From: Lingula anatina
Lineage: Eukaryota > Animalia > Brachiopoda
Length of the DNA: 64,000 bases
Assembly (NCBI GenBank): GCA_051362555.1
Contig: CM120640.1
Coordinates: forward strand, 65,016,788-65,080,787
Direction of reading: 5' to 3'
The position numbers were made by a program, and so were the translations under genes. Below are positions 1 to 56,602 of this stretch, in pieces (position 1 is the stretch's first letter; each line of letters opens with the position of its first letter). The notes below the pieces were generated by a model. That model was not told the origin of the DNA, did not search any database, and saw only the letters and a program-made list of their open reading frames with translations.

Positions 1-1155
1 TATATTTCGATATTGCCATAAGGGATTTATGATCTTGAGGGTTGAGAAGGATAAATAGTTTCTGATCACTGCCTGCTATATGTAATTCATAATTTTGTCT
101 CTCAGTATTTGGGAGGGAATTGAGCATGCTTTGTCGCTCTGTTTGGTAATTGCTGCAAGTGAGGAAGAAATGTTTCTCGTCCTCTATTTCTATTTTACAA
201 TGTATGCAGGTTCTTTCTTCCAGAGAGATTTTCATGTGCCTGCCTCTCTCTATCGCCAGTTCATGGTCACTTATTCTGTAGAAGTAACCATAGAGCAAGA
301 AAATGAACGTGAACATATACAAGACAAACATGCATATATACAGATGTTTTATTATAAAATCCTGTCCGCCATTGAATTATACTTTGATAGAAACTTGATA
401 GACTAAATCAGCTTAGAAAAATATATCCATTACGTATAATTTTTGTTTATGTTTATGAATGTTTTTTTACGATCCTTAGAAATTAAGTTATAAATCAAGG
501 TCACTTAGATGACTCCAATATTTAAACGTTTATCGAAAGCAACCTTCGGCTTTTAGTGAATTGTCTGATTTTTCAAATTGCCACAGTGAGCATTTCTCCC
601 AGAAAACCGTTCAGCTTTGATCTTATTTGAAAAGATTGATAAATGCGTTTTTCGCGTTCACCGCAAATGTGTGTATGTTGTACCTTTTTTTTAATTTCAT
701 ACATTGATGAATAAAGTAGACATTATTTCAATATGGTCATTAATGCGTTCCTTAATTGACAGTTATGTATGTGCAGAAATGTTTCGTTAATTTTAGTTAA
801 TAATTCATATTCAGACGTGACTTCGACCATAATTGATGTTGTGCAGCGACCTGGAATTGCAAACATGACAGTCAAATGCAAAACCATCACTCTTCATTAG
901 TTCCATTTTCTAATTGTCATGCTATTCAAACCATCGGTTGAAGTGAACTCAAATGTCCCTCCTTCGAATTTTTTAACGTTTCCATTGTATATTTAAAGAA
1001 AAACATTCCACATTTCATCTATAAAATTTAATTTGTGTATCTGTAACACAAAGAATGGTAACCAAGCTCAAAACGCGTGCAGCTGTGTACTTGATCACAT
1101 ATGGTAACATTTCTCATCATATTACACAGTGTTTAAGGGAAATCTAAAATTTTGT

Positions 1156-2295
1156 CTATTCATGCTTTACTTCTTTTGTATCCAATTGCTTCTTCATTTC
1201 AAAAGCAACCACCGTTACAGCATTTCCAACATCAGTCTCACCTGAATCTGGCAACGTGGGAACACATATTTTCTGCCCACCATAGTCGAACAAAAGTTTA
1301 TTAAGAAAAGCATGGGCACTGATATGTTGATTTTTAACAGCAGTGTTAACAATGACTATGGCAGTTTTCCCTCTGGTAAAATCTACTTTGTAGTATTCTT
1401 TGGTCTCAAATGACAACTGTTCATATTTCATCAAGTCCTGGTCATCTATGATCTTGTTCTCTTCAGGTATGTCTGCATCATCTTCTGACTCTTGGATCAG
1501 GCTTTCCACCATTGCTGGATCCATGGGACTGGCTTCTCTAGGAGACCAGTCGGCACAGTCTAGCACATGAACCTTGGTGTCTTCATCCAGATGACTAATC
1601 AAGGAATTAACAGTTACGTCTTGAACAATGGGGATGTGAAACTGACATCCCTTTCCTGCCTGAACTACCTGTAGGTCCCACACATCAATGCAGCCTGCAA
1701 ACAAACATTCCCCATTAAAAATTACATTTGTTTCTTTGTTGTGTATAAACTGTGGAAATAAGAAAAAGCATTCGAATCCCATGCCAATTCTATCTTGTAC
1801 TTGACATTGGCCAGCAATAAACATTCAGCTTACCACCTTAAAATTTTAATTGTAAAAAAAAAACTCGGTATTTTACAGATAACACAAAATCTGGAAAACA
1901 ATATCCATGAAGTATGCAAATGGCCATTTTAATAGGACTGTAACAACTTCCAACCATATAATCCATGACAATAATGGTAATTCAAAAATAAATAAATAAA
2001 TAAATAAATAAAATCCTAGCAAAACAACTGGAGAGAAGTGATTGTCTACCTTCAGCAAGAAGGATTTTATCTACTCTTGCAGCAGCAGCTGCCTGTAAAA
2101 GTGTCACCATACTTGCTGGGTCTGTCACTCCATCACATATCAGTGTTATGGGGCAAACGTCCTGTCTCTGCATACCTATCCTTTCAGGGAGAGGCATCCT
2201 AAAGATACCTGAGAGGGAAAGTATACATTCATTATAATCTAACAAGCAACTATAAAACATGTGTATAACACCTAGTGAAAAACAACATGCACACG

Positions 2296-2347
<52 letters not shown>

Positions 2348-5300
2348 ATGACCCAAAAATGTTACCCACTCTAACTGTTCACTGTATATCATGTCAATAC
2401 TTAAATCTTTTGGGTCAGAAGAAAAATGTCACGGAATGTTATGAAGTTTTTATTGGATACTATTAGTTCCTTACAGTCTCACTATTTCAGAACAGTGTTC
2501 AATAATTCATGACATGTTCAATCCTTGCACCTCATCCTGAATTAGTTGCTTCTCAGTGCATGGATTCCACAAATGTCATTAATTATTGAACAACACCAAT
2601 TTTTAATATTCAACATAATGAATACATTCCAGTTATATATTATAGCAATGTTCAGCAAGAAAAATGCTCCTTACCTACAACATTAGGTGTTTCATCAGCA
2701 TTACACCACAGTTGCATTGACTGCTTCTTAACTCCATATACATTTGGAATTTTCTTTTTACTTAAAGTTAAAGTGTCCAGCTTCTCTTGTACATTTAACA
2801 TTACTTTACTGTCTCCGGAAAAGAATATGCTCTTGGGAATAAGACCTGCTTCCAGTGCTCTTAATATCAATGCTTCTCCCTGCACCAAAATTATATCATG
2901 TTTCTTTCGACTGTAGGCAGTCCTTGTATGCTGCATAATGTACCTGAAATGAAAAAAATGCTTAAGTACCGTACATGATGAATAGGATATTTAACAAAGA
3001 AATATCCATATATGAAAACATTCAAACACGCTCAGATTGGGCTAACCAACTTCTGGGCATATTCAATTTAATGCACAATTCAGAAAAAGAAACAGTACCC
3101 TGACAGGACTTCGCCAAATTCTCACATTCAAAATTCCATGGTTGGAAGCCTTTCACAGTTTAGGATACTGTGGCCATATAAAAAAAGTTAAGCAATGTAC
3201 TGGTTCATTTACACAGCTATAAGCAGCGAAATTTATTGGTTTTTCATAAGTACCAACTTGTAAAGGAGATACATTGCAGTCACTTAAAGTTGAGTCAGGA
3301 CATTTCATAGTTACTTTAACATTCACTTTATATTCACATATTGGAGGATGTGCTACAAATGAACTAGCATACCTATCGCAGTAAATGCAGAACTCTTGAA
3401 AAGTAGTGATAGAGACAGATCTTAAGAGATAAGCAAGCAATAGCAAAATCCAACACTTTTATGGTTACTGTGAAGGTGCCAAGAATAAGATTTTCCCATG
3501 CTTGAGCTTTAAAAAATTACAACAAATCAACCCTTGATCATTCTTTCCTGACACTCAACATAACTATGTTACATTCTGGAGAAAAGTCAAGATAGGCAGC
3601 CAGTTTTGTAAGAATGTGATAAATTTGGTGACAGTAAATCATATTCTGAAAAACTATCAAAAGTAATATTAGAGACCATTCCAACAGATATTTAGATTGA
3701 TCTATCCCCCTGAGGAGTCTCACTAAATTGCTGTCAACTTGGCCGGCTTAAATGTCTGTCACATCTGTAAAGCTGTAAGAGGGTAATTATCTTTACCCTA
3801 GCTGATTCAGTAGGCATGACAGACTTAAGCTTTAAGCTTCTTGAGCTGGCAGCAATAGGGACAGTCGGGCTGACGTCACGCGCCTTAGCAACCGGCATCT
3901 GGGGTAAAACAAATCGGGCAACATGGCGGATCACATTGACTTCTAAGTAAAAGTTGGCAGACTTTGTCCGAAGATATCATACTTCGAAGTGCCTGAACAC
4001 TTGTGTCAGTGAGGATGAGTTATTCACCTGGTCGATTTCCTTTACAGGCCTTTGTAATTAGCGGCTGCACACCTGGTTAAGAGATAAAATCAGCTTAATA
4101 TAACTGCCGATCGTTATCTGTGATCGGGGATTTTACAGCAGAAGATTTTGCAAAGGCAGTGCTTGACCTTTTGTGTCTGGCGGGTTGAATCATTTACCTG
4201 GACTATTAAGTTAAGCCTAGGTCCCAACTACGTTTTGGACACATGGTTTTTAGGTTCCTAGGACGTAGCTAGATCGCACGTAGCGGCTGTTGATCATGTC
4301 GAAAAGTTTCTACGTGCTGTTTGCGTCCTCCAAAAGACATAAACTCACAGGTTTGTCAATATATTGACGTACTTATTTTTCTTATCTTTATAACGCCCTC
4401 AATTAACTTACAACAAAAAAGTTCGACGTTATAGTCCATTAATTTTAACTAAAAGAATTGATATACCGTCACACATGCCAAAACAAGATGCAATCTCAAT
4501 TTCTTGTAAATACTACTTTTTAATTCCTGTAACAATTGACAAACATAAATACCAAACAAGGTACAATGACTTTCTCCATATCTATAATAAAATTAACTAT
4601 ACACACATACACAAATCTCGTAGTGCATGTATACAGTGTAGCTATGACCAAATCTTGTTTCGATCATAAATCCCGTCTTTAGTCACGTTTGCACGACCTA
4701 TAGCCTGCAACAGTCGTTTATTTTTTATATTGAAATTTAAGAAATCCTCTTTGATTTTATTAATATGTTGGTAGTGTCACCTGGTATACAGCAAGCTTCC
4801 ACCATTTAACTTTTGTACGTGCCTGTGAGTTAAACAGTACCGGTTCAATTCAGTAGGCCTGCAAAATCTACCCGTCATGTGTGTCAGCAATATGCAATGT
4901 CAACAGTTATAAGTACAATTGAAACCTTCCTTGATAACATCAGTTGCTTTCATACGGTTTTCTTTTCAAAGAGATGTGAATATTATGCTCATCCAGGTAG
5001 GCAAATGAGTCTTTGCAATCTACCACTGTAAGATTCCCGATCACAGAAAACGATCGGCAGTTAAGGCCGATTTTATCTCTTAACCAGGTGTGCAGCGGCT
5101 AATTACAAAAGCCTGTAAAGGAAATCAACCAGGTAAATAGCTCAACTTCACTGACGCAAGTGGTCAGGAACTGTGAAGTATGATATCTTCGGACAAAGTC
5201 TGCCAACTTTAAGGAGCGGATGTACCCAAATATAGCTAAAAATAGCCATTTTTGGTTTTTTATGTCTAATTATTGGTTAAACGTGTATCTAACGTTTAAC

Positions 5301-8300
5301 AGAATAAAATTTTTACATTTTGAACAAAAAATTTGTTTTTTCTGATTATTCTGATGCTGCACACATCGACAGCGGTGGCCTGGTATATGCCCCGCCTTCG
5401 TTGTCAAGGGCCGTTGGCATGGGTAAACTCGGTGGGCGGACCTTAGCAGCATCAGCACGTCTAGGGAAACAATAGAACAGGGATGCGCCATGCCCCCTTT
5501 GTCATAAACAGCGATCGGCAAAGCAGTGCCTATTGTTCCGCTTAAGCTGTTTTGATAGTCTCTCTTGATTGTGATCAGCGCTAAGATGAATCTTTTCCGA
5601 CACATTGGATTTGCTCCAAATACTCGTTCTCCCTTGAATATTGCTTGTTGTTACACGCGTTCTTTCGATTTTCTTGTTAACTTTTTGAGATACGCAAAAG
5701 AAAAGAAGAAAATTCCGTTGCTTGCTACCCGTGACAACAATCGTCATTCTTTCTATCCATTTTCGCCAACAGGTCGATGCAGTTTAGTGTTAGATTTTAA
5801 AAATATACATGGGGGTAACTAGGCATACGCACGGATGCACTGTGCGTACATTTTTTTGGCCAACCATGATATTATTTTATATAAATTTAGTGTATTTTTC
5901 ACGGAATATAAAGAAATTCTCTGCTTATTAAAGTCACCTGTATGAACAAATCCTCTGTATCAATTGTATAGGCACAATTGTTCTGACACCCCCCTCCCCC
6001 CGTCTTGCATACTTTTATTGAACTGAGGTAAACAATGCCTGAAACCTTAACAAGTTTTATCTTAATCGTCCATCTAACTGGAACTTCCTTTACCTCTTTA
6101 TTGGAGGGTTCAGTGGCCCACAACTCACCTGAAGCCTCGCTGGCAATATTTATCTCAGGTAAAATATCTGTGTGTTATTTTCAAAGAGCAGCTCACGCAA
6201 CCCTGAGGGCATTAGATAAAATCTGGACACCAGGTTTCATAAGGAGCTAGAGAAACGAAGGAAGGATTTTTCCTGCAAAGCGTCAAAGAATTTTGACACG
6301 GACTTGACCCAGCTTATCCCTCCAAACTAACAGGGTGACATGGACAATTTTTACAAACATATAATAAAACTTAGATGTACCAGAGCTCTGTCGTGTCGTA
6401 CAATTGGTTGTTATGGGGAGCCATGCATCCACATGTAAGGTTAATGAAATCTAATGTTAGTTCAACTCAGAGGCGGATCCAGGATTATTCGAAGGGCGTT
6501 CCACGTATGCGAAGCTAGCCTCCTTTTAAATAAATATACCATTCTGGGTAATAAGTTTATTGAAACTTTTTTAATTGCGAGAATATTTCTGACTAAATGA
6601 TGTTTTATTATTAATGGAAATTAAGCTGCGGTGTGTGGTACATATGCTGTGATTACGCTGTCCTTCATCTCTTGCGTTAGTCTATATTTTGCTGGGAATG
6701 TAAAAAATCTGTGCGTACAATTTTTTTAAGGTCTGGTTACGCCCCTGAATCTATGCAACTTGGGCAATTCGGCCCTAGCATCGAGGCTCAACTCCTATTT
6801 ATTTCTGCTTACCATTGGTAATCGGAAAATCAACAATGATAATATCTAACCTTTCCACCTGTTTTCGAACCATTTTTCGCTTGGCGAATGTGGACAGGAC
6901 CGCATGCGATGCTGCTATTGTGTGCACATCCTAGAGCGCATCCCTAACACTTGCCCCGACGGCAATTGACGTGGCCACTGATTGCTTGGGTCATTAGGGC
7001 TTACTAGATTGCCTGTCAATCATTCTGGCAGTGCTAGCGGTAACCCCTTGAAGTTACTAACAGGAGGTGAGATTGATACAAAAATAAGATTTTCTGACAT
7101 CCAAATACATGCAAACAAGCTAATTTCAACCGGCAAAAGAGTACCCATCTTCGCGATCGTCAGAACGATAACAGGTAAAGCTGTCAACAATTTTATTTGC
7201 TTATATGGACAATTAACTTCACTGAAAGGGTTTTTGCTCGTTTTCTTTGCTTTCAATATTGATGAGATAGCGTTATCTTAACAAGCTTTAACTATCTACC
7301 TGTACACCTGAGGGAGACCAAATTCACCATGCTAATTATGAACAGTATGCTCTAAAAGTGCTTTTTAAGAAATTTTGATTGATCCTCTCTTTTCTAATTT
7401 ATAGACTTTGAAAGTGAAAATTCCCTAATATTTTGATGTAATTTCACGTTTTTATAGATAAAATCAACAATAAGTGTCTGAAGAAAAATCCCTGACTCCA
7501 TGCTGTAGTACTTTGTTCAAGTGTCATAATGACATCAAAAGCAAGTTTATAGCTGTCCAGGTGCCTGAGAAAATCAGGTGTATAAAAATGGTGTTTTTGT
7601 CCCCAAAATCCCAATATTACGTCACACGATGAAGTTAAAGCTGTGTTCCAAGCATAATTAGATATTTTGAAGATACGTTAAATGAATGTGACAGGAATAA
7701 AAAAGCCAAGACCTTTATTTTAAGAGAAAATCTCAAACCTACATTCCCTCCTTAACATAGAAGTCAATGCGATCCGCCATGTTGCCCGATTTGTTTTATC
7801 CCAGATGCCGGTTGCTAAGGTAAAGTGCCCGGATGACCGACTGTCCCTATTTAGCGTGAACCCCCAGGGAGTTAGGTCAATCCAGATGGATCGATCTAAA
7901 TCTGTAGGAATGCAGTCTCACTTGTACTTACTAGTACATATTTCCAACAAGAAATGGTTTACATACTTATACCTAAAAGTACTTGTATTCAAAATCTTAT
8001 GATTTTCCCTTTAGTATGCCAAGGATACAAGTAAGCCATCTGTAAAAGAAATGTAACTAAGAAAGACTTACCCAAATCTAGGGTCCAGTTCTTTCAGCAT
8101 TTCGTAACGTAATGGTTTCACTTTCACGCTATGTTTAGGGGCGTTTGACTGGTCTTCACTACTTCCTATAACAGGTGGTGCAACAGAAGACTTTGAAAAT
8201 TTCTTAAATTTTTGTGGTTTCTTAGGAGTGCTAGGAGTGGTAAATGCTTTTCTCTCTCGTGGATGTAGGTCTTTCCATTCACGAGGCTTCTCAATCGGTT

Positions 8301-8493
8301 TTATGTGTCGTTTGTGTTGTTGTTTTCTCAATTCTTCTTCCTCTTGTGGTGTCATAACTGTAATTACCTTTCTCCTCATCAGTTTAGCATAATTTCTGGC
8401 AAAAATGGGAGTAAGTCGTTCAATACTAGTGTGTGTTTCCCGCAAAAATAACCCAGACCTCAGGAAGAAATGTAATTTCGTGGGCGCAGCCAT
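1156..8493 (-). CDS. MRM3: Mitochondrial rRNA methyltransferase 3 (RNMTL1)-like SpoU/TrmH-fold protein, 4 exons, 462 aa; catalytic motifs degenerate
   Basis: Exons 8493-8072, 2943-2675, 2208-2050 and 1694-1156 have GT/AG junctions and total 1389 nt in one frame ending in TAG. The N-terminus is basic and transit-peptide-like (MAAPTKLHFFLRSGLFLR). Family segments: IILVQGEALILRALEAGLIPKSIFFS, PITLICDGVTDP, GCIDVWD..V..AG.G..F.IPI, GGQKICVP, FEMKKQL. Head-to-head with GLOD4, as at the human locus. Confidence 0.9.
2300..2345. repeat. (AG)n microsatellite
   Basis: agagagag run in MRM3 intron 2. It produces the spurious ERERER and SLSLSL ORFs. Confidence 0.95.
5213..7751. mobile_element. TTAA-target insertion (Kolobok-like termini) nested in the MITE right arm
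   Basis: TTAA at 5209-5212 and 7752-7755. Termini ggagcggatgta ... tacattccctcc form a 10/12 inverted match. Removing the element restores ctgccaactttaacatagaagtc, colinear with the left MITE arm. The superfamily call is inference. Confidence 0.75.
6468..6747. mobile_element. Degenerate short CAGGGGCGGATCCAGG-type MITE
   Basis: Starts cagaggcggatccaggattattcgaag and ends ggttacgcccctg. The start resembles the copy at 58767. No clean TSD. Confidence 0.4.
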
Positions 8494-8688
8494 TTTCTAT
8501 ACGCTAAGAGGAAAATGGCATTTTAGCCAATCACGCTTTCTCTGTCGCTTGCGCCCGACGCTACGCGCACGTGCCATAGTAAACATTGAATAGAAAACCA
8601 CACGTTAGTAGTGTTACCACAGCAGGTGGTGAAAAAGTGGGATTTGGAGGCTGCACGACAGAATATCGGTTCCACTTTAATAGTAGAC
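8494..8688. promoter_or_regulatory. Bidirectional promoter shared by MRM3-like and GLOD4
   Basis: 195 bp between divergent ATGs and locally CpG-rich. CCAAT box (agccaatca, ~8525), NRF1/E-box-like gcgcacgtgc (~8565), and YY1-like AAAATGGC at ~8512 and overlapping the MRM3 ATG. Confidence 0.8.
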
Positions 8689-11600
8689 ATGTCAGCTACG
8701 AGGCGTGCTTTGCATTGGGTTTTCAAGGTTGGAGATCGAACGAAAACTGCAAAATTTTACAGAGAAGTTTTAGGAATGAAGGTACGAGTAACTGTGTTAT
8801 GCTGCACAAACATGATGGTTTCGCATGACTTGCAACTTGCATGAGTGGCCATGCTGACATATGGCACTGTGTCATTAGGCGTTTTTCTAGACAATATTGT
8901 CCAACGGGTTTTTGATGGGATCGTTTTAAAAGGGTTCAAACATATCACTGTACCAGTACCTTGACTTTTGCATAAATTTCGTGCTACATGTACTCGCCCC
9001 CATATGCAAATGAAATTCTAGGTGAAATCTGAAGAGGATAAAATAGTCAATTTAAAGCATTTCCTTGTACAGTATTGTCTTGATTAAATGATTTGATGCC
9101 CAACTATTCGGAACCATAAAATTGAATAATAAATGTACTGAATATATGGATTATTTTGAATAGATATTAATGGTAAAGTATTATATTATATTAACTAGTA
9201 AAATACATTATTTCAGTTTTTGCGACATGAAGAATTTGAAGAAGGATGCAAAGCAAGTTGTAATGGGTAAGGACAATTGCTTGTACAAACAGAGGCTCAT
9301 CATTTGTTCAACCAATATGTTGCAAATTTATGAGTCATTATGCTTATATTGTACTTTCAACAAGGAGGCATATACTTAGTATGTACAGTGTAATATGGTG
9401 TAGTTCATTAATATGGTAAATCACATTTGCTTCGGAGTTATATATTGTTCATAGTGTTTAATATTTAAAGTTGCCAGAAAAAATCAGAATAATAAATTAC
9501 AGACCTAAAGTGGTATATTTTATATTCAGCCCATATGATGGAAAATGGAGTAAGTCCATGGTTGGGTTTGGACCTGAAGATGATCACTTTGTTGTGGAGC
9601 TGACTTATAATTATGGGTTAGGATCCTACCAACTGGGAAATGATATGCAGGTACAATTGACTGGTGCATGTGCCGTGCCAAAACACATGTGATAAACAAG
9701 AATGGAAGTGGCAGATTTTGAGTTTGTTCTATTTTGGCAATTAAAAAATATCATTTTGAGATCAATGCAGACACCAAGCCATATTTTTTTTTCACAAAAT
9801 TGCAGTTTCATCTCAGATGTTGTAACTTTCAGTTACTATAAAACAGGTTTGTTTGCATGTAGCTGTGGCAGGCAAAATTGAATGAAAAAAAGTATTTTTT
9901 TAACTGCTTTCTGTTTCATATTACATAGGGTATTACAGTGCACTCTAAACAGGCAGTAGAGAATGCTGCTTCACACAACTGGCCTTCTAGTCAGATAGAT
10001 GGAGCCACTGTTGTAAAGGCCCCAGATGGATACCCATTCATTTTGATAGATAAACAAGAAAGCGGTGGTTTGTATAATTTCAATCAATCAAGGATTTGAT
10101 GTGTTTTAATTTGCCATTCTTTCTGATTTCCTTAATTTTCCTTCTTTGATGATACCTACATATAGTATACATTAATTGTATGATTGATATTCTGAATATG
10201 TCAAATAGGACCACTGAGTATGCTGTACTCATAGGTGTAAGGGTCTTTTCTAATTATTTACACTGTATATATCTTCTCTGCAACATTACTATTTTGACCC
10301 TTTACTATTTTGACCTTTAAACACTGAACAAAGGATGATATCATGCAAAAGTACATGTATAACACGATCATTTTCAGATCCAGTCAAAAAAGTTACATTA
10401 TCAAGTTCCAACCTACAGAGGACGATAGGTAAAATATGGAGGAGATAATTTTTGCACTTAATATATGCTAAATATATTGTCAATTCTTAAATTTTGTCAT
10501 ATTTAAAAATATATTAAAATTATTGATAAGACAAGACATAATGATAAATGTTGTAAAAGATCTTTTTTTCTATCAGATTATTGGACTAAATTATGTGGGA
10601 TGAAAATTTTCTCTCAAAGTGACAAAAGTGTGACACTTGGGTATTCAGATAATCAGGTATGGAATTTTGGAATCTTTTGAACTTTGTCTCTTGTTTGATA
10701 TTTGTATATTGGTCCCTCCTGTCTTTTTTGGGCACTCATGCTAGCAGCTACTGAAAAATATTTTTATTGTGTACACATTGATAGTATGTAATGCTTAGAA
10801 GATGTGACCTTACTATTAAATATCCGTGTCATTTGGTGTACAGATAGTGATAAACATGAACTACTGGTAGTAGCAGGCAGCTTGATTTGAAGGAGTAATT
10901 TTTCTTTCCTCAGTGCAAGCTTGAGTTTGTGGACATAGGTCAGCCCATTGACCATGCTAAAGCTGGTGGCAGGATTGCTTTTTCATGTCCAAGAGCAGAG
11001 GTAAGACTTGTAGTAATAGCAATTATAGTAGTAGTAGTGGAAGCAATCTACATACATTAATAAATTTAAAAGATTTTGTCTTTTTAGATGATTTTAAAAG
11101 AAGTTGAATTTTTATTTAAAAATTAGACTAGTTGTATGAATATTTTCACAGATGTTTATGCTATAAACATTATTTTCAGGAACAATTGTCATTTTTATGA
11201 ATTTAAATAAAATTCTGCTAGGTTGTCTCAAGTGTATCAAAAAGATAGCAGTGTCTTGATTTATAGCTTCCAGATATAGAAAGCCAGATGAAGGCAGCTG
11301 GACAGACCATCCTCACACCCCTGGTCAGTCTGGACACTCCTGGCAAGGCTACTGTAGAAGTGGTCATCCTGGCTGATCCTGTAAGTACAAGCCTTCCAGC
11401 ATTTCTAGCGTACATGCATTTAAAATGATAATGTGCATGTGGTAATGCCCTGTGAATTTTGAATGGATCCTAAACTTCGAATGATCTTTTAAAAAATTGG
11501 CCATCTGGAGTTTTGAAGCCCATAAATTTCAACCAGGAAGTCATTTTGCACAATGGTGATTTTCGTGAATTTTGCACGGCTTAAAAATCAGCCTTTTTTC

Positions 11601-14166: not shown

Positions 14167-15233
14167 GATTTCTATCATGGTCTATTCCATTATGTAAGAA
14201 GCCCAAACGGAACTTAACAAATGGACATGTATGTTCCTGGAGATATAATTTATTTATTTATTTATTTATTTTTTGTTTCGTGTCCCAATATCTGTTGTAG
14301 TAATTCAGTCATGGTAAATTATAGCTAACGTAAGGATGTCTTTATGAATATTTATATAGGCTATATTTATACTGTAGCTCAGGGGGCTTTGCGTTTTGCC
14401 TAAAACGTAGGCCTACGTAATCGTCCCCAGAAAAATGTCCGCAAAAAGTTATTCTTGTCCAAGCACTTGGTGCAATAGGTACCAGGGGTTTCTATTGTCG
14501 ACTGACACATGTAAAGTGTTTTCATGCGTAGTTTGACATTTCTGACAAAAAAATTTGCACCACGAAAGTGTTTCGATCTTTTAGGGCCTATAGGCCTACT
14601 GTCAGCGTGCTGAATATTTCCCTTATATAATACAGAATGACAAACAAACTAAAATCGTTCAAATAATAATAATAATCCCTCTATACAGAGGATTATCATG
14701 TTTTTACAACTTTATACTTGTGGGAAATAAATTAAAGAATAAAGCCAATGCTGATCGAATTTTCAAAGTGGGGAAAAGGCAGAATATTTTTCACTTGTGA
14801 CAGTAGGCTAACGTACGGATATTTCTTTTTGAGGCTAGACAGTGGATTATTTTTTATTCTTTATAGGTCCAGGGCAGTAAAAGTTTGACACTTCTTCTTT
14901 CATGCGGACCCTAAAACCACCAAAGTTTCTTATACAATATGCGCACTTAATATTTTAAGAGCGTGCCTGTAACATAATGTGCACCTAGAGCTATATTGGG
15001 TTTGGGTGGCCGGCTGTCACCTTGATCAGCTGGCACCTAGAGCACGGGCATTTGTAAGAAAAGTCAGTTTGCAGCTCTTGGCAGACGCCTCACAGCAGCT
15101 GCTCTCAAGACGACATTAAACCAAAAATAACAGGGTTATCTAGTGCTCTCTCTATAGACTAGACGACATTGACCCAATTCAGTGTTCACATGACACTATA
15201 CATAAACCAGATCTAAGCTGTAAAGTGGGAAAC

Positions 15234-18200
15234 ATGGCAGAGGCAGAACAACAAGCCGCCCCTGAAGGGGACTCACCGTCTGTTGATTTCTCTGGAATGT
15301 GGAAATTGGACAGAAGTGAAAACTTCGAAGACTTTTTGAAGGAAAATGGTAGCGTATGCGTAACTAGTGGATGGGGTTCAGAGGGAGAGGGAGGGGGAGT
15401 GAGTTAGCTATCGCAGTATCTGACCTGTACACCTAGGCCTACAACCATGCATTGCATATGTTTGGTATTTACGAAACGTGTTACTTGGAAATCACCGAGA
15501 AGTGCATGTACCTTCTCTGTCCACCATGGCAGAGGCTGTGTTGCATATATATGTATGTAAACCAGAGATCGAACTACTGGTAGTACGTGCAGTACCACCC
15601 CGAGGATAAATTTGAGTGTAGAAGGGGGCGTGGTGCGTGAGGGCGTGCAGCATGTATTGAGTTTGCCAGTATGGAGTTCACGCTTGATTGTAATGCCCGT
15701 GACAGCTAATTAAGTCTAAATACGATAAACCCATTTGTCTCATAACATTTTATTGCTGTAGTGATTTACATTTTATTATGTACAGACACAGATGTGTCTG
15801 TACATATAGCCATCATCTGCGTCTGTCGTCGCCGTCGTCGCCGTCGTCGCCGTGCACTTTTACCGATAACACGATAAGTGGAAAACCATTTTACCTTTTG
15901 ACTTGAAACTTGCAGAACTGATGAATATTCATAATACGCAGGTCAAGTTCGAAAATCAGCATGATCGGGTCACTTTTAGGGAATTTATGCTGTTTTTATG
16001 TACAGACACAGATGTGTCTGTACATATAGCCATCATCTACGTCTGTCGTCGTCGCCGTCGTCGCCGTCGTCGTCGCCGTGCACCTTTACCGATAACACGA
16101 TAAGTGGAAAACCATTTTACCTTTTGACTTGAAACTTACAGAACTGATGAATATTCATAATACGCAGGTCAAGTTCGAAAATCAGCATGATCGGGTCACT
16201 TTTAGGGAATTTATGCTGTTTTTTCACTTTTTTCAGCATATATGCAGCACCGATAACACGATAAGTGGAAAACCATTTTACCTTTTGACTTGAAACTTAC
16301 AGAACTGATGAATATTCATAATACGCAGGTCAAGTTCGAAAATCAGCAAGATTGGGCCATTTTTAGGGAATTTATGCTGTTTTTTCACTATTTTCAATAT
16401 AAATACAACACTGATAACACAATATAAGAAAAACGGATTGGCCAATTGTAATTATACTCACAGGAGTGGTCAATCTTACTAAAACGCAGGTTGAGTTCGA
16501 AAATCAGCATAATCGGGCCATTATTTTAGAAGTTATACTGTTTTTCACATTTCCTCAGATTCAATTATTAGGCATGTTAACAGTCTCATTATTTAACTAA
16601 TAAGATGCCTAAAAGTGTTTGTTTGATATTTCCTGCATCTTTACAACATTGTTAGTTGATTATGTAAAAAACATGGTAAACTTGTTATCATGTATTGTGT
16701 AACAAAGTGTCAAAAATGGAAATAAACTCATATCATTGCAGTTTGTCAGATTCAATCATCCACTATGTTCAGAATCTCAGAATGGAGGAAATTGGACATT
16801 TAACACTGTTCTATTGATACTTTTCCCATCTCATCAATTTTCTTAGTTGGTCATATAAAATGGCAGTAAAATGTTTATTTTGTTTTATGTTAAAAAAGTG
16901 TTAAAAATGGAAATAAACCCATTTCAGAACAGTGCTGTCTTGTTTACATTTTGGCATTTTCAAGGCGTGACTTTGAAGTTCCATGGGCCTGAAGACTTTT
17001 GCTTGTCACATTTTCTGAATGTCCATGTTACTAATATTTTATTAATAACATTTGATTGTCATTATGCTGTTAAACATTATGTAATGTTGCATCAAAATTT
17101 GAAGAAACCCCTATTTTGGGCACTGCTCCTATGATGACCATTTAAGGGAAATCATGTCACTTACTGTTCTCAAACTTACAGGAAAGAAACATGGGTCTAA
17201 CATACAGCTTTAATTGGCAACACAGTCTGTTTGGTAAATTTTTCTGGCAATTTAACAGTTTTTTGTGAAAATTTAATTTTTCAGTTATTTGCATCTTTAT
17301 TTTCTGTTCTTTGTCTGTACATTTGACAGCTTTGCTGCCTTGTTTCACTTTTTTCAGCATATATGCAGCACCGATAACACGATAAGTGGAAAACCATTTT
17401 ACCTTTTGACTTGAAACTTGCAGAACTGATGAATATTCATAATACGCAGGTCAAGTTCGAAAATCAGCATGATCGGGTCACTTTTAGGGAATTTATGCTG
17501 TTTTTTCACTTTTTTCAGCATATATGCAGCACCGATAACACGATAAGTGGAAAACCATTTTACCTTTTGACTTGAAACTTACAGAACTGATGAATATTCA
17601 TAATACGCAGGTCAAGTTCGAAAATCAGCATGGTCGGGTCACTTTTAGGGAATTTATGCTGTTTTTTCACTTTTTTCAGCATATATGCAGCACCGATAAC
17701 ACGATAAGTGGAAAACCATTTTACCTTTTGACTTGAAACTTACAGAACTGATGAATATTCATAATACGCAGGTCATGTTCGAAAATCAGCATGATTGGGC
17801 CATTTTTAGGGAATTTATGCTGTTTTTTCACTATTTTCAATATAAATACAACACTGATAACACAATATAAGAAAAACGGATTGGCCAATTGTAATTGTAC
17901 TCACAGGAGTGGTCAATCTTACTAAAACGCAGGTTGAGTTCGAAAATCAGCATAATCAGGCCATTATTTTAGAAGTTATACTGTTTTTCACATTTCCTCA
18001 GATTCAATTATTAGGCATGTTAACAGTCTCATTATTTAACTAATAAGATGCCTAAAAGTGTTTGTTTTATATTTCCTGCATCTTTACAACATTGTTAGTT
18101 GATTATGTAAAAAACATGGTAAACTTGTTATCATGTATTGTGTAATAAAGTGTCAAAAATGGAAATAAACTCATATCATTGCAGTTTGTCAGATTCAATC

Positions 18201-20662
18201 ATCCACTATGTTCAGAATCTCAGAATGGAGGAAATTGGACATTTAACACTGTTCTATTGATACTTTTCCCATCTCATCAATTTTCTTAGCTGGTCATATA
18301 AAATGGCAGTAAAATGTTTATTTTGTTTTATGTTAAAAAAGTGTTAAAAATGGAAATAAACCCATTTCAGAACAGTGCTGTCTTGTTTACATTTTGGCAT
18401 TTTCAAGGCGTGACTTTGAAGTTCCATGGGCCTGAAGACCTTTGCTAGTCACATTTTCTGAATATCTGTGAAACAAATATTTTATAATTAAAAATTGATG
18501 GTCATTAAGCTGTTAAACATTATGCAATTATATAATTATATAATATTGCATTATATAATATTGCATCAAAATTTGAAGAAACCCCTATTTTGGGCACTAC
18601 TTCCATGATGACCATTTAAGGAAAATCATGTCACTTACTGTTCTCAAACTTACAGGAAAGAAACATGGGACTAAAATACAGCTTCAGTAGGCAATGCAGT
18701 CTGTTTGGTATTTTTATTTATTTATTTATTTATTTTTTTTTTTTGGCAGTTAAACAGTTTTTTGTGAAAATTTAATTTTTCACATATTGGCATTTTCAAG
18801 GTGTGACTTTAAAGTTCCATGATCTTGAAGACTTTTGCTTGTCACATTTTCTGAATGTCCATGTTACTAATATTTTATTAATAACATTTGATTGTCATTA
18901 TGCTGTTAAACATTATGTAATGTTGCATCAAAATTTGAAGAAACCCCTATTTTGGGCACTGCTCCTACGATGACCATTTAAGGGAAATCATGTCACTTAC
19001 TGTTCTCAAACTTACAGGAAAGAAACATGGGTCTAACATACAGCTTCAATAGGCAACGCAGTCTGTTTGGTAAATTTTTCTGGCAATTTAACAGTTTTTT
19101 GTGAAAATTTAATTTTTCACTTATTTGCATCTTTATTTTCTGTTCTTTGTCTGTACATTTGACAGCTTTGCTGCCTTGTTTATGTACACACTAATCCATT
19201 GTTATGGCTTTGAAACCTTTTTTATATTGTGTTAGTTCAACATTTAGGCCTAAAATTAACAAACTGAACAGTTAATTATAAGTCAGTGATGGTATTATCT
19301 ATTATGGTTTTTATGTCCATGACAGGTGCCAACATTGTAGCCAGAAAGATGGCAGGATTATCCAAACCTACACAAGAAATCAAACAAGAGGGGAACAAAT
19401 TTGTGATCAAGACACAGGCTGGTTTTTGGACACAGGAGCAGTCCTTTACAGTGGGAGACAGTTTTCAGCAGGACCATCAGGGCACGACGATGACAGTAAG
19501 CTGAGCAGTCAGTTCTAAATATTCCAGTTGCGTAAGATGTAACAGTGGTTGCCCTTACACAGCCTGATTGCCTGTGACCTTTTTAAAAGATAGGCGGGTC
19601 TTGCTATAAATAATGAGCTGACAGTGCCCTTTGGACCCTTATGTAAGATAGATGTAAAATTGTATGTCTTCCTGCATGATTATTCTATTTATTTGTGACA
19701 CCAGCATATTCTACCTAGTGTTTTAAAAGGAACCCTGAGTAGTTGAGTGATAAAGGTGATACAGGTACTCCTCTCGTGGTGTACGTTACCTTCTCTGTCA
19801 GTAAATATATAGGCCTACTGTATAAAGAACACCCATTTAAGCACTGAAACTCTGGGGTTGATTGTGTTGTTTAAATAGGCATTAGATTATATATATAGCA
19901 TTTGATTGTATGTTTATTTTATTAGTGTTCAACTCGTTGGGAAGGGAACAAACTTATCACTGATTTAGTTCCCAATGAAGAGGGTAAAGGGAAGAAAACT
20001 AAGAATACTAGAGAGTTGGTGGGTGACGAGTTAGTGCAGGTAAGAATGCTGTAAGATTTGTAATACTGGTACTGTGCACCATACTACAATACCAGTACAT
20101 GTACTGCTGTGACTGTGTCATGTCTGTGAATTTTTACATGATTTTTTCTTAATGTCCACCGTTGGTAGTATCTTAAAATGTAATACTTAATGTGTAATCT
20201 ATCAATTTTAGTGATTTCAGGAATCTCTTTTTGCTGTTGTTCATTCAGTATTGAAAAATTATGGTAAAATATATCATCAGTCTCTATAAGTTGTTGGCCA
20301 GGTTTTTGATAATTAAATAGAATTGACATCCTTGGTCGTCATGTCACAATGAATGATGGTGATTAGAAATTTCCTTTTGATTTTTTTAAAATTAATTAAA
20401 ATTCATATGTAGAGCAATGACTGCATTATTACTGCACATTATTTTGTGGGATACTGCTATATACAGCTTAAAAAAGATATAAGTATTTACTTTATTTTCT
20501 TTCTAATACTCCCTTAAATAAATAAATAAATGAATGTTCTTTTTATTATTTTGTTTGTTGTTGTTGTTTTTTGTTTTGTTTTGTTCTGTTTTTTTTTTTC
20601 AGACCATGGAAGTGGGAAATGTGGTGTGCAAGAGAATATTCAAGAAACTGCCTCCAAGTTAA
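15234..20662 (+). CDS. FABP: Intracellular lipid-binding protein (FABP/CRABP family), copy 1, 152 aa
   Basis: Exons 15234-15348, 19326-19495, 19926-20039, 20603-20662. Motifs DFSGMWKLDRSENFEDFLKENG, RKMA..KPTQEIKQEGNKFVIKT, SFTVG, WEGNKL, TRELVGDELVQ, VVCKRIFKK. Canonical iLBP 4-exon layout with intron phases 1,0,0. Confidence 0.95.
15773..19181 (+). mobile_element. Helentron-associated (HINE/DINE-1-like) element, family A; composite of two nested copies with 161-bp core repeats
   Basis: 5' palindrome tgtacagacac-agat-gtgtctgtaca, a (GTC/GCC)n microsatellite, tandem 161-bp cores (caccgataacacgataagtgg at ~17369, 17530, 17691), and a 3' subterminal repeat gtctgtacat plus hairpin gacagc-ttt-gctgcc. 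T-rich target with no TSD. Two heads (15778, 15998) and two tails (~17343, ~19181). Confidence 0.85.
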
Positions 20663-22845
20663 TTGCGCTGAACAAGATGCTTATGAAATATATATTTTAT
20701 AGTATATATTCCAAGCATGTTAACTAAACGTTGACAAACTTTAAGTTATTAGTTTAACATTTTGGGCATTAATTCCAGTCATTTGTATAACATAGCCCAT
20801 TTGACTGTTTTATAAGAGCTATAGTACATCATGTTTGTTTTAAACAAAATGTGCATATAATGTACAGTAAAACTGCGTTTGTGTAAAAGTGTTATAATAT
20901 AAGACATGGCAGGTTATCTGACCGCTTACAATAAGCAGAAGATACTGTAAACAATGAAAGTGTAGACCTACTGAAAAAGGGACATTTGCAATACTGGTCA
21001 TTATTTTGTTGTTTTTTTTTACTTGATTCATGTCACATATGTGGTATTTTATCATGGTACATGTGCTTATTTAGCTTGTACAATCTCATGACATTTGCTT
21101 ATATACCATGCTTACATTGAAATGTAATTTTTTTTAATATTACCGTATATGGTTAACCTTTTTTTCAGTGATTGTTTCATGATTAGATTTTAAGGATTAC
21201 AAGATGAATGGAATGAAAACAAATGCTTTATTTTGATAATCACTATATCCTGCTTATTGCTTTGCGCAAAGAGCCAGTAGATTAATATATTTTTTTCAAG
21301 TCTAATAAGGAACTATTGTACGCAGCAACCGTTGATCACCATGTTATTCTGGAATAAGTAAGAATAGAATCAACAGTGTTGACGTCATTTCAACGAAAAT
21401 CGGAAACCAAATAAAAGTGCTTGCTAAGCTTTTCTGTGCTTTACATCAACTTTAACCCCAAAAATATTATTGGTGAGCCTAAGAGAGAGAGAGGGAGAGA
21501 GAGAGAGAGGTGGGGGTAGGCCCCTAATGCATCAAAATGAGCATAAGGATACAGTGATAGCTCGCACTGGCTCGTCCACTCTGTTTTGTAAGTTATTCTG
21601 ATTTATATGTGAAAATAGTTTCATTGGATCTCAACTTTAAAAAGTAATTCAGTTGTGACCAAGTCTGTCAGAGTGAACAGACACAACGGTCAAGAGATAA
21701 ATCTAATATGTGGATCTATCGTAAATGAAAACTTTAAAAATTTTCTTCTGATTTAGTTTTCAATGCTTTAAATGCACACGTTCAAAGATTTACAGAGTGA
21801 GCCAAAAAGGAAAAGTGCAACAATATATTACCTCATTAATACATGTACACGTAGACCTACTTATTGTCTGTTCACCCGTGTCAGCTTGATGTATCCCTGG
21901 GCATTGGCTTGCTCTTCACAGGGTTCTTTCGTATATAATGTCCTTTGTTAAACATAACATCATTAGTATCTATACTGAGGGGTATTATATCCATTGGTAA
22001 ACATTAAAACATAAATATCTCAAATTTAATTTAACAGGAACAAATTGCATATTGTTTGTACGAAAAAAAATTATTTTATAAAGATTAAGCCCTACTGAAT
22101 TAGTGAAAATATTTTAAATTAAAATAACCAAAGTCTTAGAATAAATAATGGGCTTACAGCTTTAAGTGACATCTTTCCTGAATATATACACTATCACTGA
22201 AGGTTATAGTTATTTTATTTTATTCATTATTTAAAAAATTTTCATTGTTTATTCCCAGCGACGTGGTCGTTACATGCAACGTCATTTTGAGGGTTCATAT
22301 CAAATCACCGTATAGACCTTTAAGAAATAAATAAGTTATCCCCAGAGAAGGCGTAGAAACCGAAAGCTTGGATAGGATACTACATCTTTTTCATGAGATC
22401 TTCATAGATGCATCATTATGATAACTTCTTTATACAACGTCATTATGACGACGCCGCTGCACGCGATCACAACGACGTACGTAAGTAACAACTATTTGAT
22501 TGAAAATAGCGTCATTTGAAGACACATGCAATTGTAGTAGACTCTATGCGATCGTTGGTGGCTGCAATTGTGTAGTGTCCTGCTTTGGACTTTGGTAATG
22601 CAGCAAACCATTGCATGGACAGCGTCACTGTTCACAAAGAAGATAATCTTAATGCTGGATTTTGAAGTTAATGTGTGACTTGATCAACGGGTGCTGTTGT
22701 AGGCCTACCTGATTACGTACGATAGTTTGTAAAGACGACTTCAGAAGCTGGAAAGGCAATGTGCTTATGCAGCACCGTTTTACTAGAATATATCTACATC
22801 TAGCTGTAAATATTTACACGTCTTATAGTGTAGTTCTCCCTCACC

Positions 22846-23925
22846 ATGGCAGCAGTTGATTTTTCTGGTTCTTGGAAAGTGTACAGAAGTGAAAATTTTG
22901 AGGCTTTCATGAACAAAGTTGGTAAGTTAATCATACATTGTAGACCTACATTCCATACCTGTACACGATAGAGATAACTGAGTCGACATACGACTTGTGC
23001 CTTAGATATATTTCGTGTGTATCTCTAACTGTAGTACTGGCATTTGTTTCCATACATGAAATAATGCCAACTTTTCATCATTACAAATATATCCTGTGTA
23101 CGCTATGCTTTAATGAAATATTTCAGGTATTGGCTTCATAAAGAAAAAAATTGCTGCTAACACCAACCCAACGGTAACAATAGAACAAAATGAAGACAAC
23201 TTTAAAACTAAATTTAGCATGGGACCAATATCAAAAGAAAGTGCCTTTGCAATTGGGACTGAAATGAACGTTGATGAATTTGACAAGAAAATGAAGGTGA
23301 GAAGGTGACGTCATTTCATGATTTTTTCTACTGCATATGGAACTATTCATTAACTCAGGTGCACACATAGCACATACGGCGAAATTTTAACACTTTTCAA
23401 TGGAATTCTATTAAATTTGAAGATCTGTTTGTTTGCCCTGTACTTGCAGACCACTCCTGCTTGGGAGGGGTCCAAGCTGGTATTCCGTTGTGTTCCGGTA
23501 GACGGCGACGGCGACTCCGTTATCATGACCAGGGAGATCGTAGACGGGGAGATGGTGCAGGTAGATATACCACGTTATTTGTTTAGGAATAAAATCAAGA
23601 CTTTGTATTACAAAGTGCAAACTATTTAAGTTACTGAAAATTTGAGTCAACCTTATATTCGTCCGAGAGTCGACCAGAAATCGTCAAATTTGTTGAATAT
23701 CCATGATTCTTTACTAATGATTGGAGTTAGCCTCATTGAAACATGCCTCCCATGCAAACTATAGAATAAGAGGAAATGACAAAAAAATTGTCGGTTTTTC
23801 TTAATAAAGGCACATGTTTTATTTGATTGGTTTGGTTAATGCCTTTTAATCTCTAAATCATTTCATTTCAGGAGATGACATGCGGTGAAGTGACTTCAAA
23901 ACGATTTTTTAAAAGAGTTCAGTAG
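22846..23925 (+). CDS. FABP: FABP/iLBP copy 2, 136 aa
   Basis: Exons 22846-22921, 23127-23296, 23450-23560, 23872-23925. MAAVDFSGSWKVYRSENFEAFMNKVG...WEGSKL...TREIVDGEMVQEMTCGEVTSKRFFKRVQ*. Confidence 0.95.
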
Positions 23926-25115
23926 GGTCTAGTATTTACTGCTTCCAGGGAGAGACACGTATTGTACAAACTGAAAAACCGCTCTGTTCGATTGTACAGG
24001 TCAAATGAAGACAGAGAAGCAGCGAATTTTTTCAAATCGTGTGAAGCTCATACTACGTGTACATATAAACTGCATGATCAAAACTCCCCAGCGAGGTTTA
24101 ATTTTGATGAAAATTCATGTGTCTACTTATCGCAAAACAAAGTCCAAAAATATATCGTTTATGTTGTTCTTTGGATTGTATATTAAATTAATTGTATCAG
24201 TTTTACTCCTGAAAAGGCTACTGCTTACGTGTCGAATATAAATTTTTATCGCCATTTAAATCATATGTTTATTTATAAATACTCGTACATTGTTTTGTAC
24301 TATGATGAATATTGATATATACGAAAATAAATTAACGAATCTTTCCTCACAAACATCTTATAACTTTGTTTACCTTTACACTTATTGTCTTGTGACACAA
24401 GTTATATTTTAGTTAATTGAAATCAATATAATCATCACTGATCGCATCTAATGCACAGTTAAAACATCGATCGATTTATACAAGACTGACTACAGGGTCC
24501 TAAATTGTTCTCATATCATGCATTAGTGACTTTGCACAGGCAAGTGCAATAACCTATAGTAAGTAGGCCTACTTTCTATATAGGCCTACCGCCTTCTCAA
24601 ACCACCTCTATCCACCCCCACCCAAAGACACCCTCCCCCCCCCCCCCCACCCACCCACCCACCCACCCACCCAAACACACACACACACACTGATAGCCTT
24701 GGGTTACATGTCGGACGTGTATTTCGGTGCTTGGCTTTATCAAATCTCGTCACTGTGCTCTAGCAGGCCCTACTATCTCTTTTCGTTAACAATTCACATT
24801 TCGCAGTGACAAGCAGAAAATTATTTGAGAATATGTCATCTAATAAAAGCTGACATAATGTAGGTCCTACCCGTAAATCCGGTAAAAGCACTGGCCCATA
24901 TTTTGTAGTGCTTAAACATGCTTAAGGTTGGGAAGAGGTTAAAAACCAGGACTATACCCTTTGTTAAATAGATCTTGACCTCTTTTCACTTTGTATACCG
25001 TGCATACAATGAGTATGTTCGAGTCTCAGTACCCAGGTTTGTGTTAATGGACACCATAATTTAATAGGTATTTGAACAGAGTAGCAGTAGAAAACGTCAA
25101 CAATAATCCACTAAC

Positions 25116-26533
25116 ATGGCGCCAGTCGATTTCACTGGGACTTGGAAGGCGGATAGAAGTGAAAACTTTGAGGCGTTCTTGAACAAAGTTGGTAAGACGA
25201 CTTGTCTATAATTCTACATGTAACATACGGCAGCACCGTTACTTTACCTTTACATTTGTACAGTAACAACTTTTGTTTGCTATGATTCGACGGACGGGAC
25301 TAGTGCTTCTCTATCTGATCTGCTATGCGTCACTGGACTTCCAGATTTGCTATCTGCGATTTCGGGGGAGTGGGACTGGGGTGGGAGGCAATCTTTTTCG
25401 TTTTGGAGTATGTGACTCAGAATGATAAACCATATCAAACAGACTCATATGACTGTGTGATATGGGAATGGCATCAACCGTACCCGGTATATACTGTTAC
25501 TACATAAACAACTAGAAAAGCACTCCGAGAGCGCAGACCTCCGCCAAGACAGCGATTTTTTTATTATTGTTGATTATTGATTGATTATTAATCCGGATCA
25601 CCACCAAAAACTAATCATCTCTTCCTTGGCCCACTTCTGACAGTTCCTGAAAAATTCATCAAAATCGGTCCATAACTTTTTGAGTTATGTTGATGACAAA
25701 CAAACAAACAGACAGACAGACAGACAGGGGTGAAAACAATCTCCTTGGGGGGGGGGGGGGTTATAAATAAAAGAATGAATGAATGAAAAAAGAAAGAAAG
25801 ATCCTATAAGCTGGATGTATTAAAAAGTTTTCCTTTGAATCCAAGTGCTAAACTAAAACATGCATTATTTACTCTAGGTGTTTCATACTTTATGAAAAAA
25901 ATAGCAGTCAATACTCACCCTACTTTGGTTATGGACCAGAAGGAAGACAACTTCAAGGCTAAATTCAGCATGGGAATTATTTCAAAGGAAAGTGCCTTTA
26001 CCATAGGGATAGAAATGGATTTTGACGAATTCAAGAAGAAAATGAAGGTGCAAACATACCATATATGTCATTAAATTATATAATTTATACCTCTTCTTTT
26101 GTCTCTTTTGCCATTAAAAAACTTGATACAGGAAAATGGGCATACAAATGAAGGTATTTATTCGATTGACAAACTGTGCAAGTGCATTTAAATCATTTAT
26201 TTAAGAAGTCATACGCTGCATTTGCAGACGACTCCTGCTTGGGAGGGGTCCAAGCTGGTATTCCGTTGCGTTCCGGTAGACGGCGACGGCGACTCCGTTA
26301 TCATGACCAGGGAGATCGTAGACGGGGAGCTGGTGCAGGTACGGTGAATAAATTGGAATTGTTAACTAAGTTCCCAATTATCTGAGACAAACACATTACA
26401 TTATATTTATTATAAGCGCCTTCCAAAACTTGTCCAAGCGCTGGGTGCGGTTTTGTAATGCCCTTAATTATATTTTCAGGAAATGACTTGTGGTGAAGTG
26501 ACTGCGAAAAGGATTTTCAAGCGTGTTGCATGA
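25116..26533 (+). CDS. FABP: FABP/iLBP copy 3, 136 aa
   Basis: Exons 25116-25191, 25878-26047, 26228-26338, 26480-26533. MAPVDFTGTWKADRSENFEAFLNKVG...WEGSKL...TREIVDGELVQEMTCGEVTAKRIFKRVA*. Confidence 0.95.
25506..25766 (-). mobile_element. Short HINE/DINE-like element (family B)
   Basis: aactagaaaagcactccgagagcgc hairpin followed by acctccgcca, a single core, a (CAAA)/(CAGA)n microsatellite and a degenerate terminal ctccttgg...gg.ttataa. Same architecture as the other HINEs, in reverse orientation. Confidence 0.6.
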
Positions 26534-27414
26534 TCAAATATAGGGGCGATGTTATTAAACAGTATTAAGTTATCATATAGCGTTTGTATAATCCAGGATT
26601 GGGCTTTTTTTGCTTAAATTACATGTTCAAGTCACTGTATTTAAGCATGAAATGCACCGCGAGGATGAGCGACAAAACGTTACTGTTTATTAGTGCATTG
26701 GTTACTGCATGCCCATGGTCAGGTGTTTGTAGAGAAACAAACCTACAAATAAAGATGTTTGAAAACAGTAACAGTGCCTAAGAGAGAGAGGGAGAGAGAG
26801 AGGACAGCAAAGTGTAACACGCCTATATCTCTTTTTAAAATCCCTCAAGCATTTATTATTTTCTTTTTAGATGCAAATTTATGCTAATATATGTACATTA
26901 TATGTATAGCACAAATAAACCGTTTACTAGTTATTTTAAGATAATTGTTATGGACAACACTGAATTTTTGTCGAATATTTCTCCTTCCCCTATTAAATGT
27001 CTTTTGTATTTAACACCCATGATCCTATTGATTGGAACTGCTTACAAATCCTCGTGTACAGTACGTAAGTGATGCGCGAGAAGACATCATACATCATTTA
27101 AACACCCCTTATGGGCCACACCTTCTGGGTACTAAGTAGGCCTATAGAATACAATAAACTGGGCTTTTTAACTCTCGGGTCAATAACTGGGACGCACGCA
27201 TTAAAACCGCATAATAAAAATACATTGTGACGATGCAGAGGTCAATAACTAGAACGCATAGTACTGTGTTACCATGTGCACAAAATTATATCCTGAAGCT
27301 GATTATTTTCGATATAAATAGCGTGTATTCTGCCCTGACTCAATATCGGTACAAGTATCAACAGAGACAGCACAGTCTGCATAGATTTTGTTCATTCAGC
27401 ACAACAAATACAAA

Positions 27415-29146: not shown

Positions 29147-29336
29147 TACGGGTGTTACAATAATGGCAGTCCACAATAGGAACCGTAGTCCGCTCCCCAT
29201 ACGGGTGATATTCGCCCCATATACTTCCCCCAATCAAGGAGTTATAACTCCTTGCCCCAATACTCCGGCTAACTCTAACCTGCACTTAGCATATGGGACC
29301 CCGATATCTAGGACTACCATTCCTGTCACACCGGTA
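29147..29336. mobile_element. Degenerate short MITE
   Basis: tacgggtgttacaataatggcagtcc compared with the reverse complement of the right end, taccggtgtgacaggaatggtagtcc: a ~26-bp imperfect inverted repeat. Confidence 0.45.

Positions 29337-35148: not shown

Positions 35149-56602
<21,454 letters not shown>

Follow-up and report, generated by a model that had tools for sequence, protein, structure and literature searches.

An apparently inactivated MRM3 methyltransferase in the brachiopod Lingula anatina: a candidate non-catalytic factor of mitochondrial ribosome assembly

In the genome of Lingula anatina, we observed a transcribed and spliced gene for MRM3 whose protein lacks the tested catalytic residues of the SpoU methyltransferases, is predicted to retain the SpoU fold and probably, if far from certainly, helps in a non-catalytic way to assemble the mitochondrial large subunit. 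The gene occupies positions 8493-1156 on the minus strand of the window, that is, of the whole 64-kb stretch of DNA that was analysed, and consists of four exons with 462 codons and a stop. All exon borders are GT-AG and the spliced open reading frame is unbroken, in agreement with an earlier note on this DNA that had described an intact 462-residue frame with intact splice sites; the span assigned there, 1156..2208, does lie inside the gene but takes in exons 3 and 4 only. The relevant features are as follows.

8689..8779, plus strand: first coding exon of GLOD4 (match to human GLOD4 in PDB, E 1e-8), with the ATG at 8689 and spliced reads at 8779/9215
8072..8493, minus strand: MRM3 exon 1, with the MAAP start, a putative mitochondrial presequence, the conserved basic N-terminal peptide and the start of the L7Ae/L30-like domain
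8347..8397, minus strand: conserved MRM3 peptide (residues 33-49), after the likely presequence cleavage site, from an N-terminal alignment of 25 proteins
2675..2943, minus strand: MRM3 exon 2, N-terminal substrate-binding domain (weak match to PF22435, E 0.036)
2050..2208, minus strand: MRM3 exon 3, in which the SPOUT domain begins, with a degenerate motif 1
1156..1694, minus strand: MRM3 exon 4, with K292Q/R295Q, an acidic insert, degenerate motifs 2 and 3, the conserved last helix and the stop

With exon 4 as the query, a single protein was retrieved, XP_013387570, which is Lingula anatina MRM3 by its RefSeq name and differs from the window protein over residues 39-462 at six positions only, each of them encoded by exon 4. 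This record begins at Met39, 38 codons 3' of the start in the window (8493-8380), and so is missing the likely presequence; the longer, 462-codon model is probably right because its MAAP start and the peptide R-x-Y-A..RR..V..P can be aligned with the orthologues of animals that range from molluscs to mammals. The best PDB matches of the window protein are mouse MRM3 (E 4.5e-33) and human MRM3 (E 2.2e-30), followed by RlmP (7e-11); thus MRM3, not MRM1, RlmB or TrmH, is the best match, and the matches in the ESM Atlas come from MRM3/SpoU clusters only. The gene lies head-to-head with GLOD4, with ~195 bases between the two start codons, an arrangement that we presume to hold for the human genes as well. 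The two human genes are both listed in one 17p13.3 deletion interval, as reported in PMC5685312. The gene in the window is an MRM3 orthologue, at a GLOD4-linked locus. A first tree (FastTree) placed it inside the lophotrochozoan clade and a second left it unresolved at the base of the protostomes; its terminal branch is long (1.72 vs a median of 0.58).

Reads from four RNA runs of three studies, mapped onto positions 900-9800, span all three MRM3 introns. Spliced reads in the four runs number 18, 3, 2 and 30 at the junction 1693/2049, 4, 3, 0 and 17 at 2205/2672 (the zero being that of run X17), and 32, 5, 5 and 23 at 2940/8069. First mates map to the plus strand over the MRM3 exons and mostly to the minus strand over those of GLOD4, as fits transcripts that run in opposite directions. 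The 5.1-kb first intron of MRM3 contains dispersed repeats (3600-7900), among which the segments 3700-3900 and 7730-7900 are alike and attract many reads of other loci.

Two further loci lie elsewhere in the window.

15100-31700, plus strand: several genes in tandem that resemble those for fatty-acid-binding proteins; one of the exons weakly matches the Lipocalin/FABP family of Pfam (E 0.0016)
35100-56600, minus strand: WD40 gene, from a domain match

The WD40 gene, which we take to resemble coronin, has a degenerate tandem repeat in its introns, near 43800-44800. Exons at 60400-62500 on the plus strand presumably encode CUB-like domains, and the open frame at 2-376 on the minus strand has a Cys/His pattern that, we assume, is like that at the C terminus of proteins from non-LTR retrotransposons.

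The evidence of inactivation comes from the motifs that form the active site. The four sequence strings quoted for them in the earlier note were located at residues 260, 289, 396 and 428 (window 2122-2075, 1680-1648, 1359-1330 and 1263-1219), and the MRM3 motifs that it had given for comparison are correct as read from the human and mouse PDB chains 7oi6_z and 9hcc_x. The replacements claimed there, namely, N263S, G265V, R269Q, R295Q, the loss of GxExxG and the change of SLN to ETD, are all present, and to them we add K292Q, E162Q and R165A, the last two of which turn the conserved E-G-x-R of exon 2 into Q-G-E-A.

2113-2111, 2107-2105 and 2095-2093, minus strand: motif 1 codons of S263, V265 and Q269, from the alignment with relatives
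1671-1660, minus strand: K292Q/R295Q, in exon 4
1335-1333, minus strand: K404, the position of the motif 2 Glu, in exon 4
1239-1231, minus strand: motif 3, E436-T437-D438, in exon 4

The four key positions, those of the motif 1 Asn, the motif 1 Arg, the motif 2 Glu and the motif 3 Asn, are thus occupied by S, Q, K and D, and residues 393-412, in the region of motif 2, contain no G or E at all, so that the glycines of the knot loop are gone. A shifted register in which N441 would serve as the motif 3 Asn was rejected, given that the anchors P429 and F448-E449 fix position 438. Individuals differ at these sites: the public Lingula protein reads ETI where the window reads ETD, and has N in place of K at the position of the motif 2 Glu.

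These replacements are rare in the family. An exhaustive search, with representatives at 50% identity, yielded 149 relatives, 145 of which were aligned, with the four longer than 750 aa omitted. Among the aligned sequences, the motif 1 N, G and R are conserved in 142/144, 142/144 and 140/144, respectively, the motif 2 E in 134/137 and the motif 3 N in 125/132. All four key residues are kept in 120 of the 130 relatives that span these positions, three in 8, one in 1 and none in 1, and a second, mostly vertebrate set of 111 rows has all four in each of the 108 rows that cover them; the concern voiced in the earlier note, that active invertebrate MRM3 proteins might commonly carry such substitutions, finds no support in these counts. 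Comparison with the Pfam SpoU profile, a check of the PF00588 kind that the note had proposed, points the same way, as the Lingula protein scores 23.3 bits, below the cut-off of 29.7, and matches only positions 2-83 of the 142 in the profile; four intact orthologues score 74-92.

Mutagenesis of bacterial homologues indicates what such replacements mean. In Bacillus subtilis RlmP, whose product is Gm2553, the site equivalent to that of MRM3, each of the substitutions N117A, R123A, E206A and N234A is reported to lower activity dramatically (PMC9380741), and N122A, R128A, D235A and N238A are reported to leave RlmR with 0-10% of its activity (PMC12123411). Every equivalent of these essential residues is replaced in the Lingula protein, which, judging from its sequence, is very probably catalytically dead and is likely to be unable to bind SAM productively or to methylate its target.

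The fold, by contrast with the active site, seems to be retained. The AlphaFold model (pLDDT 82, pTM 0.76) was built from an alignment of 109 rows in which active orthologues predominate, a bias towards the fold of the family; its best match is mouse MRM3 (Z 26.7 and rmsd 3.1 with 285 residues aligned; E 6e-23), and the L30-like N-terminal domain and the SPOUT alpha/beta domain are both predicted to be kept. The predicted homodimer scored 0.44, compared with 0.61 for one control, and we count this score neither for nor against a dimer. The hydrophobic pattern of the motif 1 helix and of the last helix is preserved together with the F-E-x-x-x-Q end, and, in the alignment of 25 proteins, the basic N-terminal peptide is retained in Lingula and in the MRM3 proteins of the clams Mya and Dreissena. 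The RNA groove fared differently. Of 17 columns in which K/R predominates among relatives, only 5 are still basic, and the 12 that are lost include the equivalents of R35, R128 and R153 of RlmR, which contact the A-loop and contribute to RNA binding according to PMC12123411. The SPOUT domain's first half has a net charge of -7, against a median of -1 in relatives (quartiles -2 to +1), whereas that of the N-terminal domain is +7 against a median of +5. Against six reference orthologues, the Lingula protein is 30% identical in the N-terminal domain, 38% in the first SPOUT half and 23% in the knot half, compared with 32-43, 48-55 and 32-43%, respectively, for intact lophotrochozoan MRM3 proteins, a Mytilus record without much of the N-terminal domain being set aside. 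The Lingula SPOUT domain seems, then, to have kept its folded shape as a shell but to have given up recognition of the A-loop.

The distribution of the changes argues for maintenance of this protein. Among 39 columns that are conserved at 85% or more in the non-degenerate relatives, Lingula has lost all 12 of those linked in the literature to catalysis or target contact as against 7 of the 27 others (Fisher p 1.3e-5, the column classes having been chosen with the alignment already known). Altogether, 19 of the 39 are altered, yet there is not a single stop or frameshift; given that 4.6% of single-base changes in this open reading frame create a stop, some 13 stops would be expected at 0.2 neutral changes per base. 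The coding variants of other samples in exons 2-4, among those listed (588 and 59 further rows lie beyond the two lists), comprise 11 replacement and 11 silent changes where ~79% replacements are expected (sites 760 vs 203), that is, a pN/pS of ~0.27 (p 0.002, with transition bias ignored and with samples that, as PMC8146825 indicates, may mix cryptic Lingula species); in exon 4 alone, the ratio among the listed variants is 9 to 9 (p 0.005). Three of the replacement variants hit the codons of the former motif 2 Glu and motif 3 Asn (K/N and D/I between Lingula samples). All 12 of the indels listed, from a total of 15, fall outside the MRM3 exons. In one DNA run, X2, a 595-base contig that tracks the gene between 2283 and 2121 departs from it inside exon 3, for at least 255 bases; in the same run, 1996-2120 is without coverage and the depth over 1165-1453 is ~2x that of intron 3. 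The loose end of the contig has no match within the 64-kb window, and the break is possibly a disrupted allele, a partial duplicate or an assembly artefact. MRM3 of Lingula is expressed, intact and, by the variants listed, under purifying selection. Because the loss is targeted, the fold is predicted to be kept and the variants are skewed to silent ones, we regard the protein as a maintained pseudo-enzyme, not the product of a decaying pseudogene; the suggestion of the earlier note, a pseudo-enzyme without pseudogenisation, gains support from these observations and from the RNA junctions.

Lingula is not the only species with a degenerate MRM3. The alignment contains two other such rows, XP_052802892 of Mya arenaria (P0130) and XP_052257011 of Dreissena polymorpha (P0109/P0157), in which, as in Lingula, motifs 1-3 are largely lost while the open reading frame and the N-terminal peptide are kept. 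Their replacements are unlike those of Lingula, however, and the erosion extends more widely and shows no significant targeting (p 0.08 and 0.29). The two clam proteins are sisters (100/100), grouped with two intact sequences (98/96) with which they have in common a two-residue insertion that is absent from Lingula; they are 62% identical to each other in the N-terminal domain, as against 46% and 33% in the halves of the SPOUT domain. A FastTree grouping of Lingula, Mya and Dreissena (0.864) was rejected as probable long-branch attraction, with a p-AU of 0.028 against a single origin for a group that was defined after the first tree was known. On the alignment and trees, the loss of motifs in Mya and Dreissena appears to be separate from that in Lingula. 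The motif 2 Glu is changed to Lys in the scallop Ylistrum (P0007) and to Asp in P0061/P0160, and motif 3 is ambiguous in a Trichinella record (P0100); the single-position changes suggest a wider, partial erosion of MRM3 in bivalves. Tentatively, and with rather more doubt than confidence, we propose that MRM3 has become a purely structural factor of mitoribosome assembly at least twice in shelled lophotrochozoans (in Lingula and in Myida), with partial erosion elsewhere in bivalves, and that the A-loop guanosine is unmethylated in these animals.

Slow decay after a recent or partial loss of function would account for some of the same observations if the remaining constraint reflected avoidance of misfolding and transcription simply rode on the promoter shared with GLOD4. 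The long branch, the eroded basic surface, a pN/pS that, at ~0.27 among the listed variants, is moderate, the possible disrupted allele of run X2 and the loss of the gene in nematodes all fit such a course. It is hard to reconcile with the change of 19 of 39 conserved columns without a stop or frameshift, with the aim of the loss at functional columns, with the position of the listed indels (12 of 15), all outside exons, and with the preserved presequence-like region and N-terminal peptide, and we consider decay unlikely. Somewhat less probable still is that the dead methylase has been retained to do something else in mitochondria, for example binding in RNA granules or nucleoids or service as a protein-protein adaptor, instead of large-subunit assembly: the acidic groove and the lost A-loop contacts would fit a change of partner, and the last helix and the predicted fold are kept, but the Lingula protein was found to have neither a novel domain nor a novel conserved surface, and the parts that it retains are those that the orthologues use on the pre-ribosome.

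The earlier note had also raised the idea of an inactive partner that forms a heterodimer with an active MRM3 paralogue, as proposed for mt-LAF5/6 of trypanosomes. SpoU 2'-O-methylases are dimers, as stated in PMC9380741, and a heterodimer does exist in trypanosomes, as described in PMC7957421. In the complex of RlmR with RNA and SAH, however, the active site is split between the protomers, with the catalytic Arg and R35/R153 coming from protomer B and SAH, N122, S236 and N238 lying in protomer A (PMC12123411); the Lingula protein is without both residue sets, and a pair of one active and one Lingula-type chain would therefore have no complete site. Moreover, the protein sits at the GLOD4-linked locus and has no close Lingula paralogue by a whole-protein word search, in which the one match among 4520 candidates was XP_013387570 itself. 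A profile search, which also missed several of its own seeds, found no second copy from Lingula, Mya or Dreissena in the best 120 of 568 matches, and none from Lingula was seen among the 149 relatives, 20 of which were identified by name; a second, active copy in Lingula may still exist outside the sequences covered. The heterodimer proposal thus fails on the shared site and is very improbable. We give just as little credence to continued activity, by way of a rebuilt site or towards a different substrate, which the predicted fold and the other mechanisms known in the SPOUT enzymes Trm10 and Sfm1 (PMC9380741) would allow; the positions that were once catalytic differ among samples labelled as this species, the glycines of the knot loop have been lost, and the replacements in Lingula, Mya and Dreissena all differ.

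A scaffold in mitoribosome assembly is our best guess for the role of Lingula MRM3. In mammals, an MRM3 dimer is reported to hold H92 in early large-subunit intermediates, with one N-terminal domain in contact with DDX28 (PMC8316566), and MRM3 is reported to stay on the intermediates even after SAM depletion (PMC12198368); for MRM2, METTL15, NSUN4 and Pet56, catalysis is described as dispensable for assembly (PMC8854578, PMC11197891). The simplest form of the scaffold hypothesis is weakened, since 12 of the 17 conserved basic columns are lost, those that contact the A-loop included, and with the A-loop groove eroded, any such role likely runs via the N-terminal parts. Presumably, the protein is imported into mitochondria, given a presequence-like N-terminus that aligns with those of orthologues, and its basic N-terminal peptide and L7Ae-like domain would bring it into an early intermediate of the large subunit; the A-loop target would no longer be gripped, so that a placeholder or recruitment step might be kept via the N-terminal parts with methylation dropped, and Lingula mitochondrial 16S rRNA would be without Gm at the site equivalent to G1370. 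Loss of the A-loop Gm is likely not an alternative to the scaffold but its companion. Mitochondria of C. elegans and yeast are reported to lack this Gm, which fly and fish have (PMC4148245), and animals can thus tolerate its loss; the same report describes C. elegans as without an MRM3 gene altogether, and the scaffold role is thus not universal.

A protein that is under selection without its chemistry points to a role of MRM3 that is independent of catalysis. Rorbach et al. 2014 (PMC4148245) did not settle whether mitoribosome biogenesis requires the MRM3 protein, the methylation or the two together; for MRM2 and METTL15, the question of protein versus catalysis now has an answer (PMC8854578, PMC11197891), and we found no such test for MRM3 in the literature searched. 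If our interpretation is true, the Lingula and Myida proteins are natural separation-of-function alleles that map the assembly surfaces of MRM3 without methylation. The prediction is that there are animals without Gm1370, with consequences for Um1369, which in human depends on MRM3 according to PMC8854578. Behind the RefSeq name 'rRNA methyltransferase 3' there is likely a dead enzyme. In the literature searched, with subscription papers outside its scope, we found no report of a dead animal MRM3, and the search yielded no papers that join MRM3 and Lingula. Dead methylase scaffolds are already known, in trypanosomes, and a natural dead MRM3 in an animal is apparently new in the literature searched.

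Among the known systems, human and mouse MRM3 (RNMTL1; 7OI6, 9HCC), the SpoU 2'-O-methylase for 16S Gm1370, is the best match in both sequence and fold. It has in common with the Lingula protein the order of domains, the acidic insert, the N-terminal peptide and the GLOD4 neighbour, and differs from it in that motifs 1-3 and most of the K/R residues of the groove are replaced in Lingula. RlmP of B. subtilis (YsgA, 7QIU) and RlmR of T. thermophilus (9H1K) have the combination of L30-like and SPOUT folds that is predicted here (Z 22.9 and 23.4, respectively) but are active bacterial A-loop methylases, whereas Lingula MRM3 is without all of their essential residues. The closest working analogue is most likely the dead SpoU factor MRM/mt-LAF5-6 of T. 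brucei, which is part of a mitoribosomal large-subunit intermediate (7AOI, 6YXX) and for which a closed SAM site, a disrupted motif and action as a scaffold are described in PMC7957421. The T. brucei MRM is a distant protist protein, with 13-15% identity, and belongs to a system of two paralogues, whereas the Lingula protein is animal MRM3 itself.
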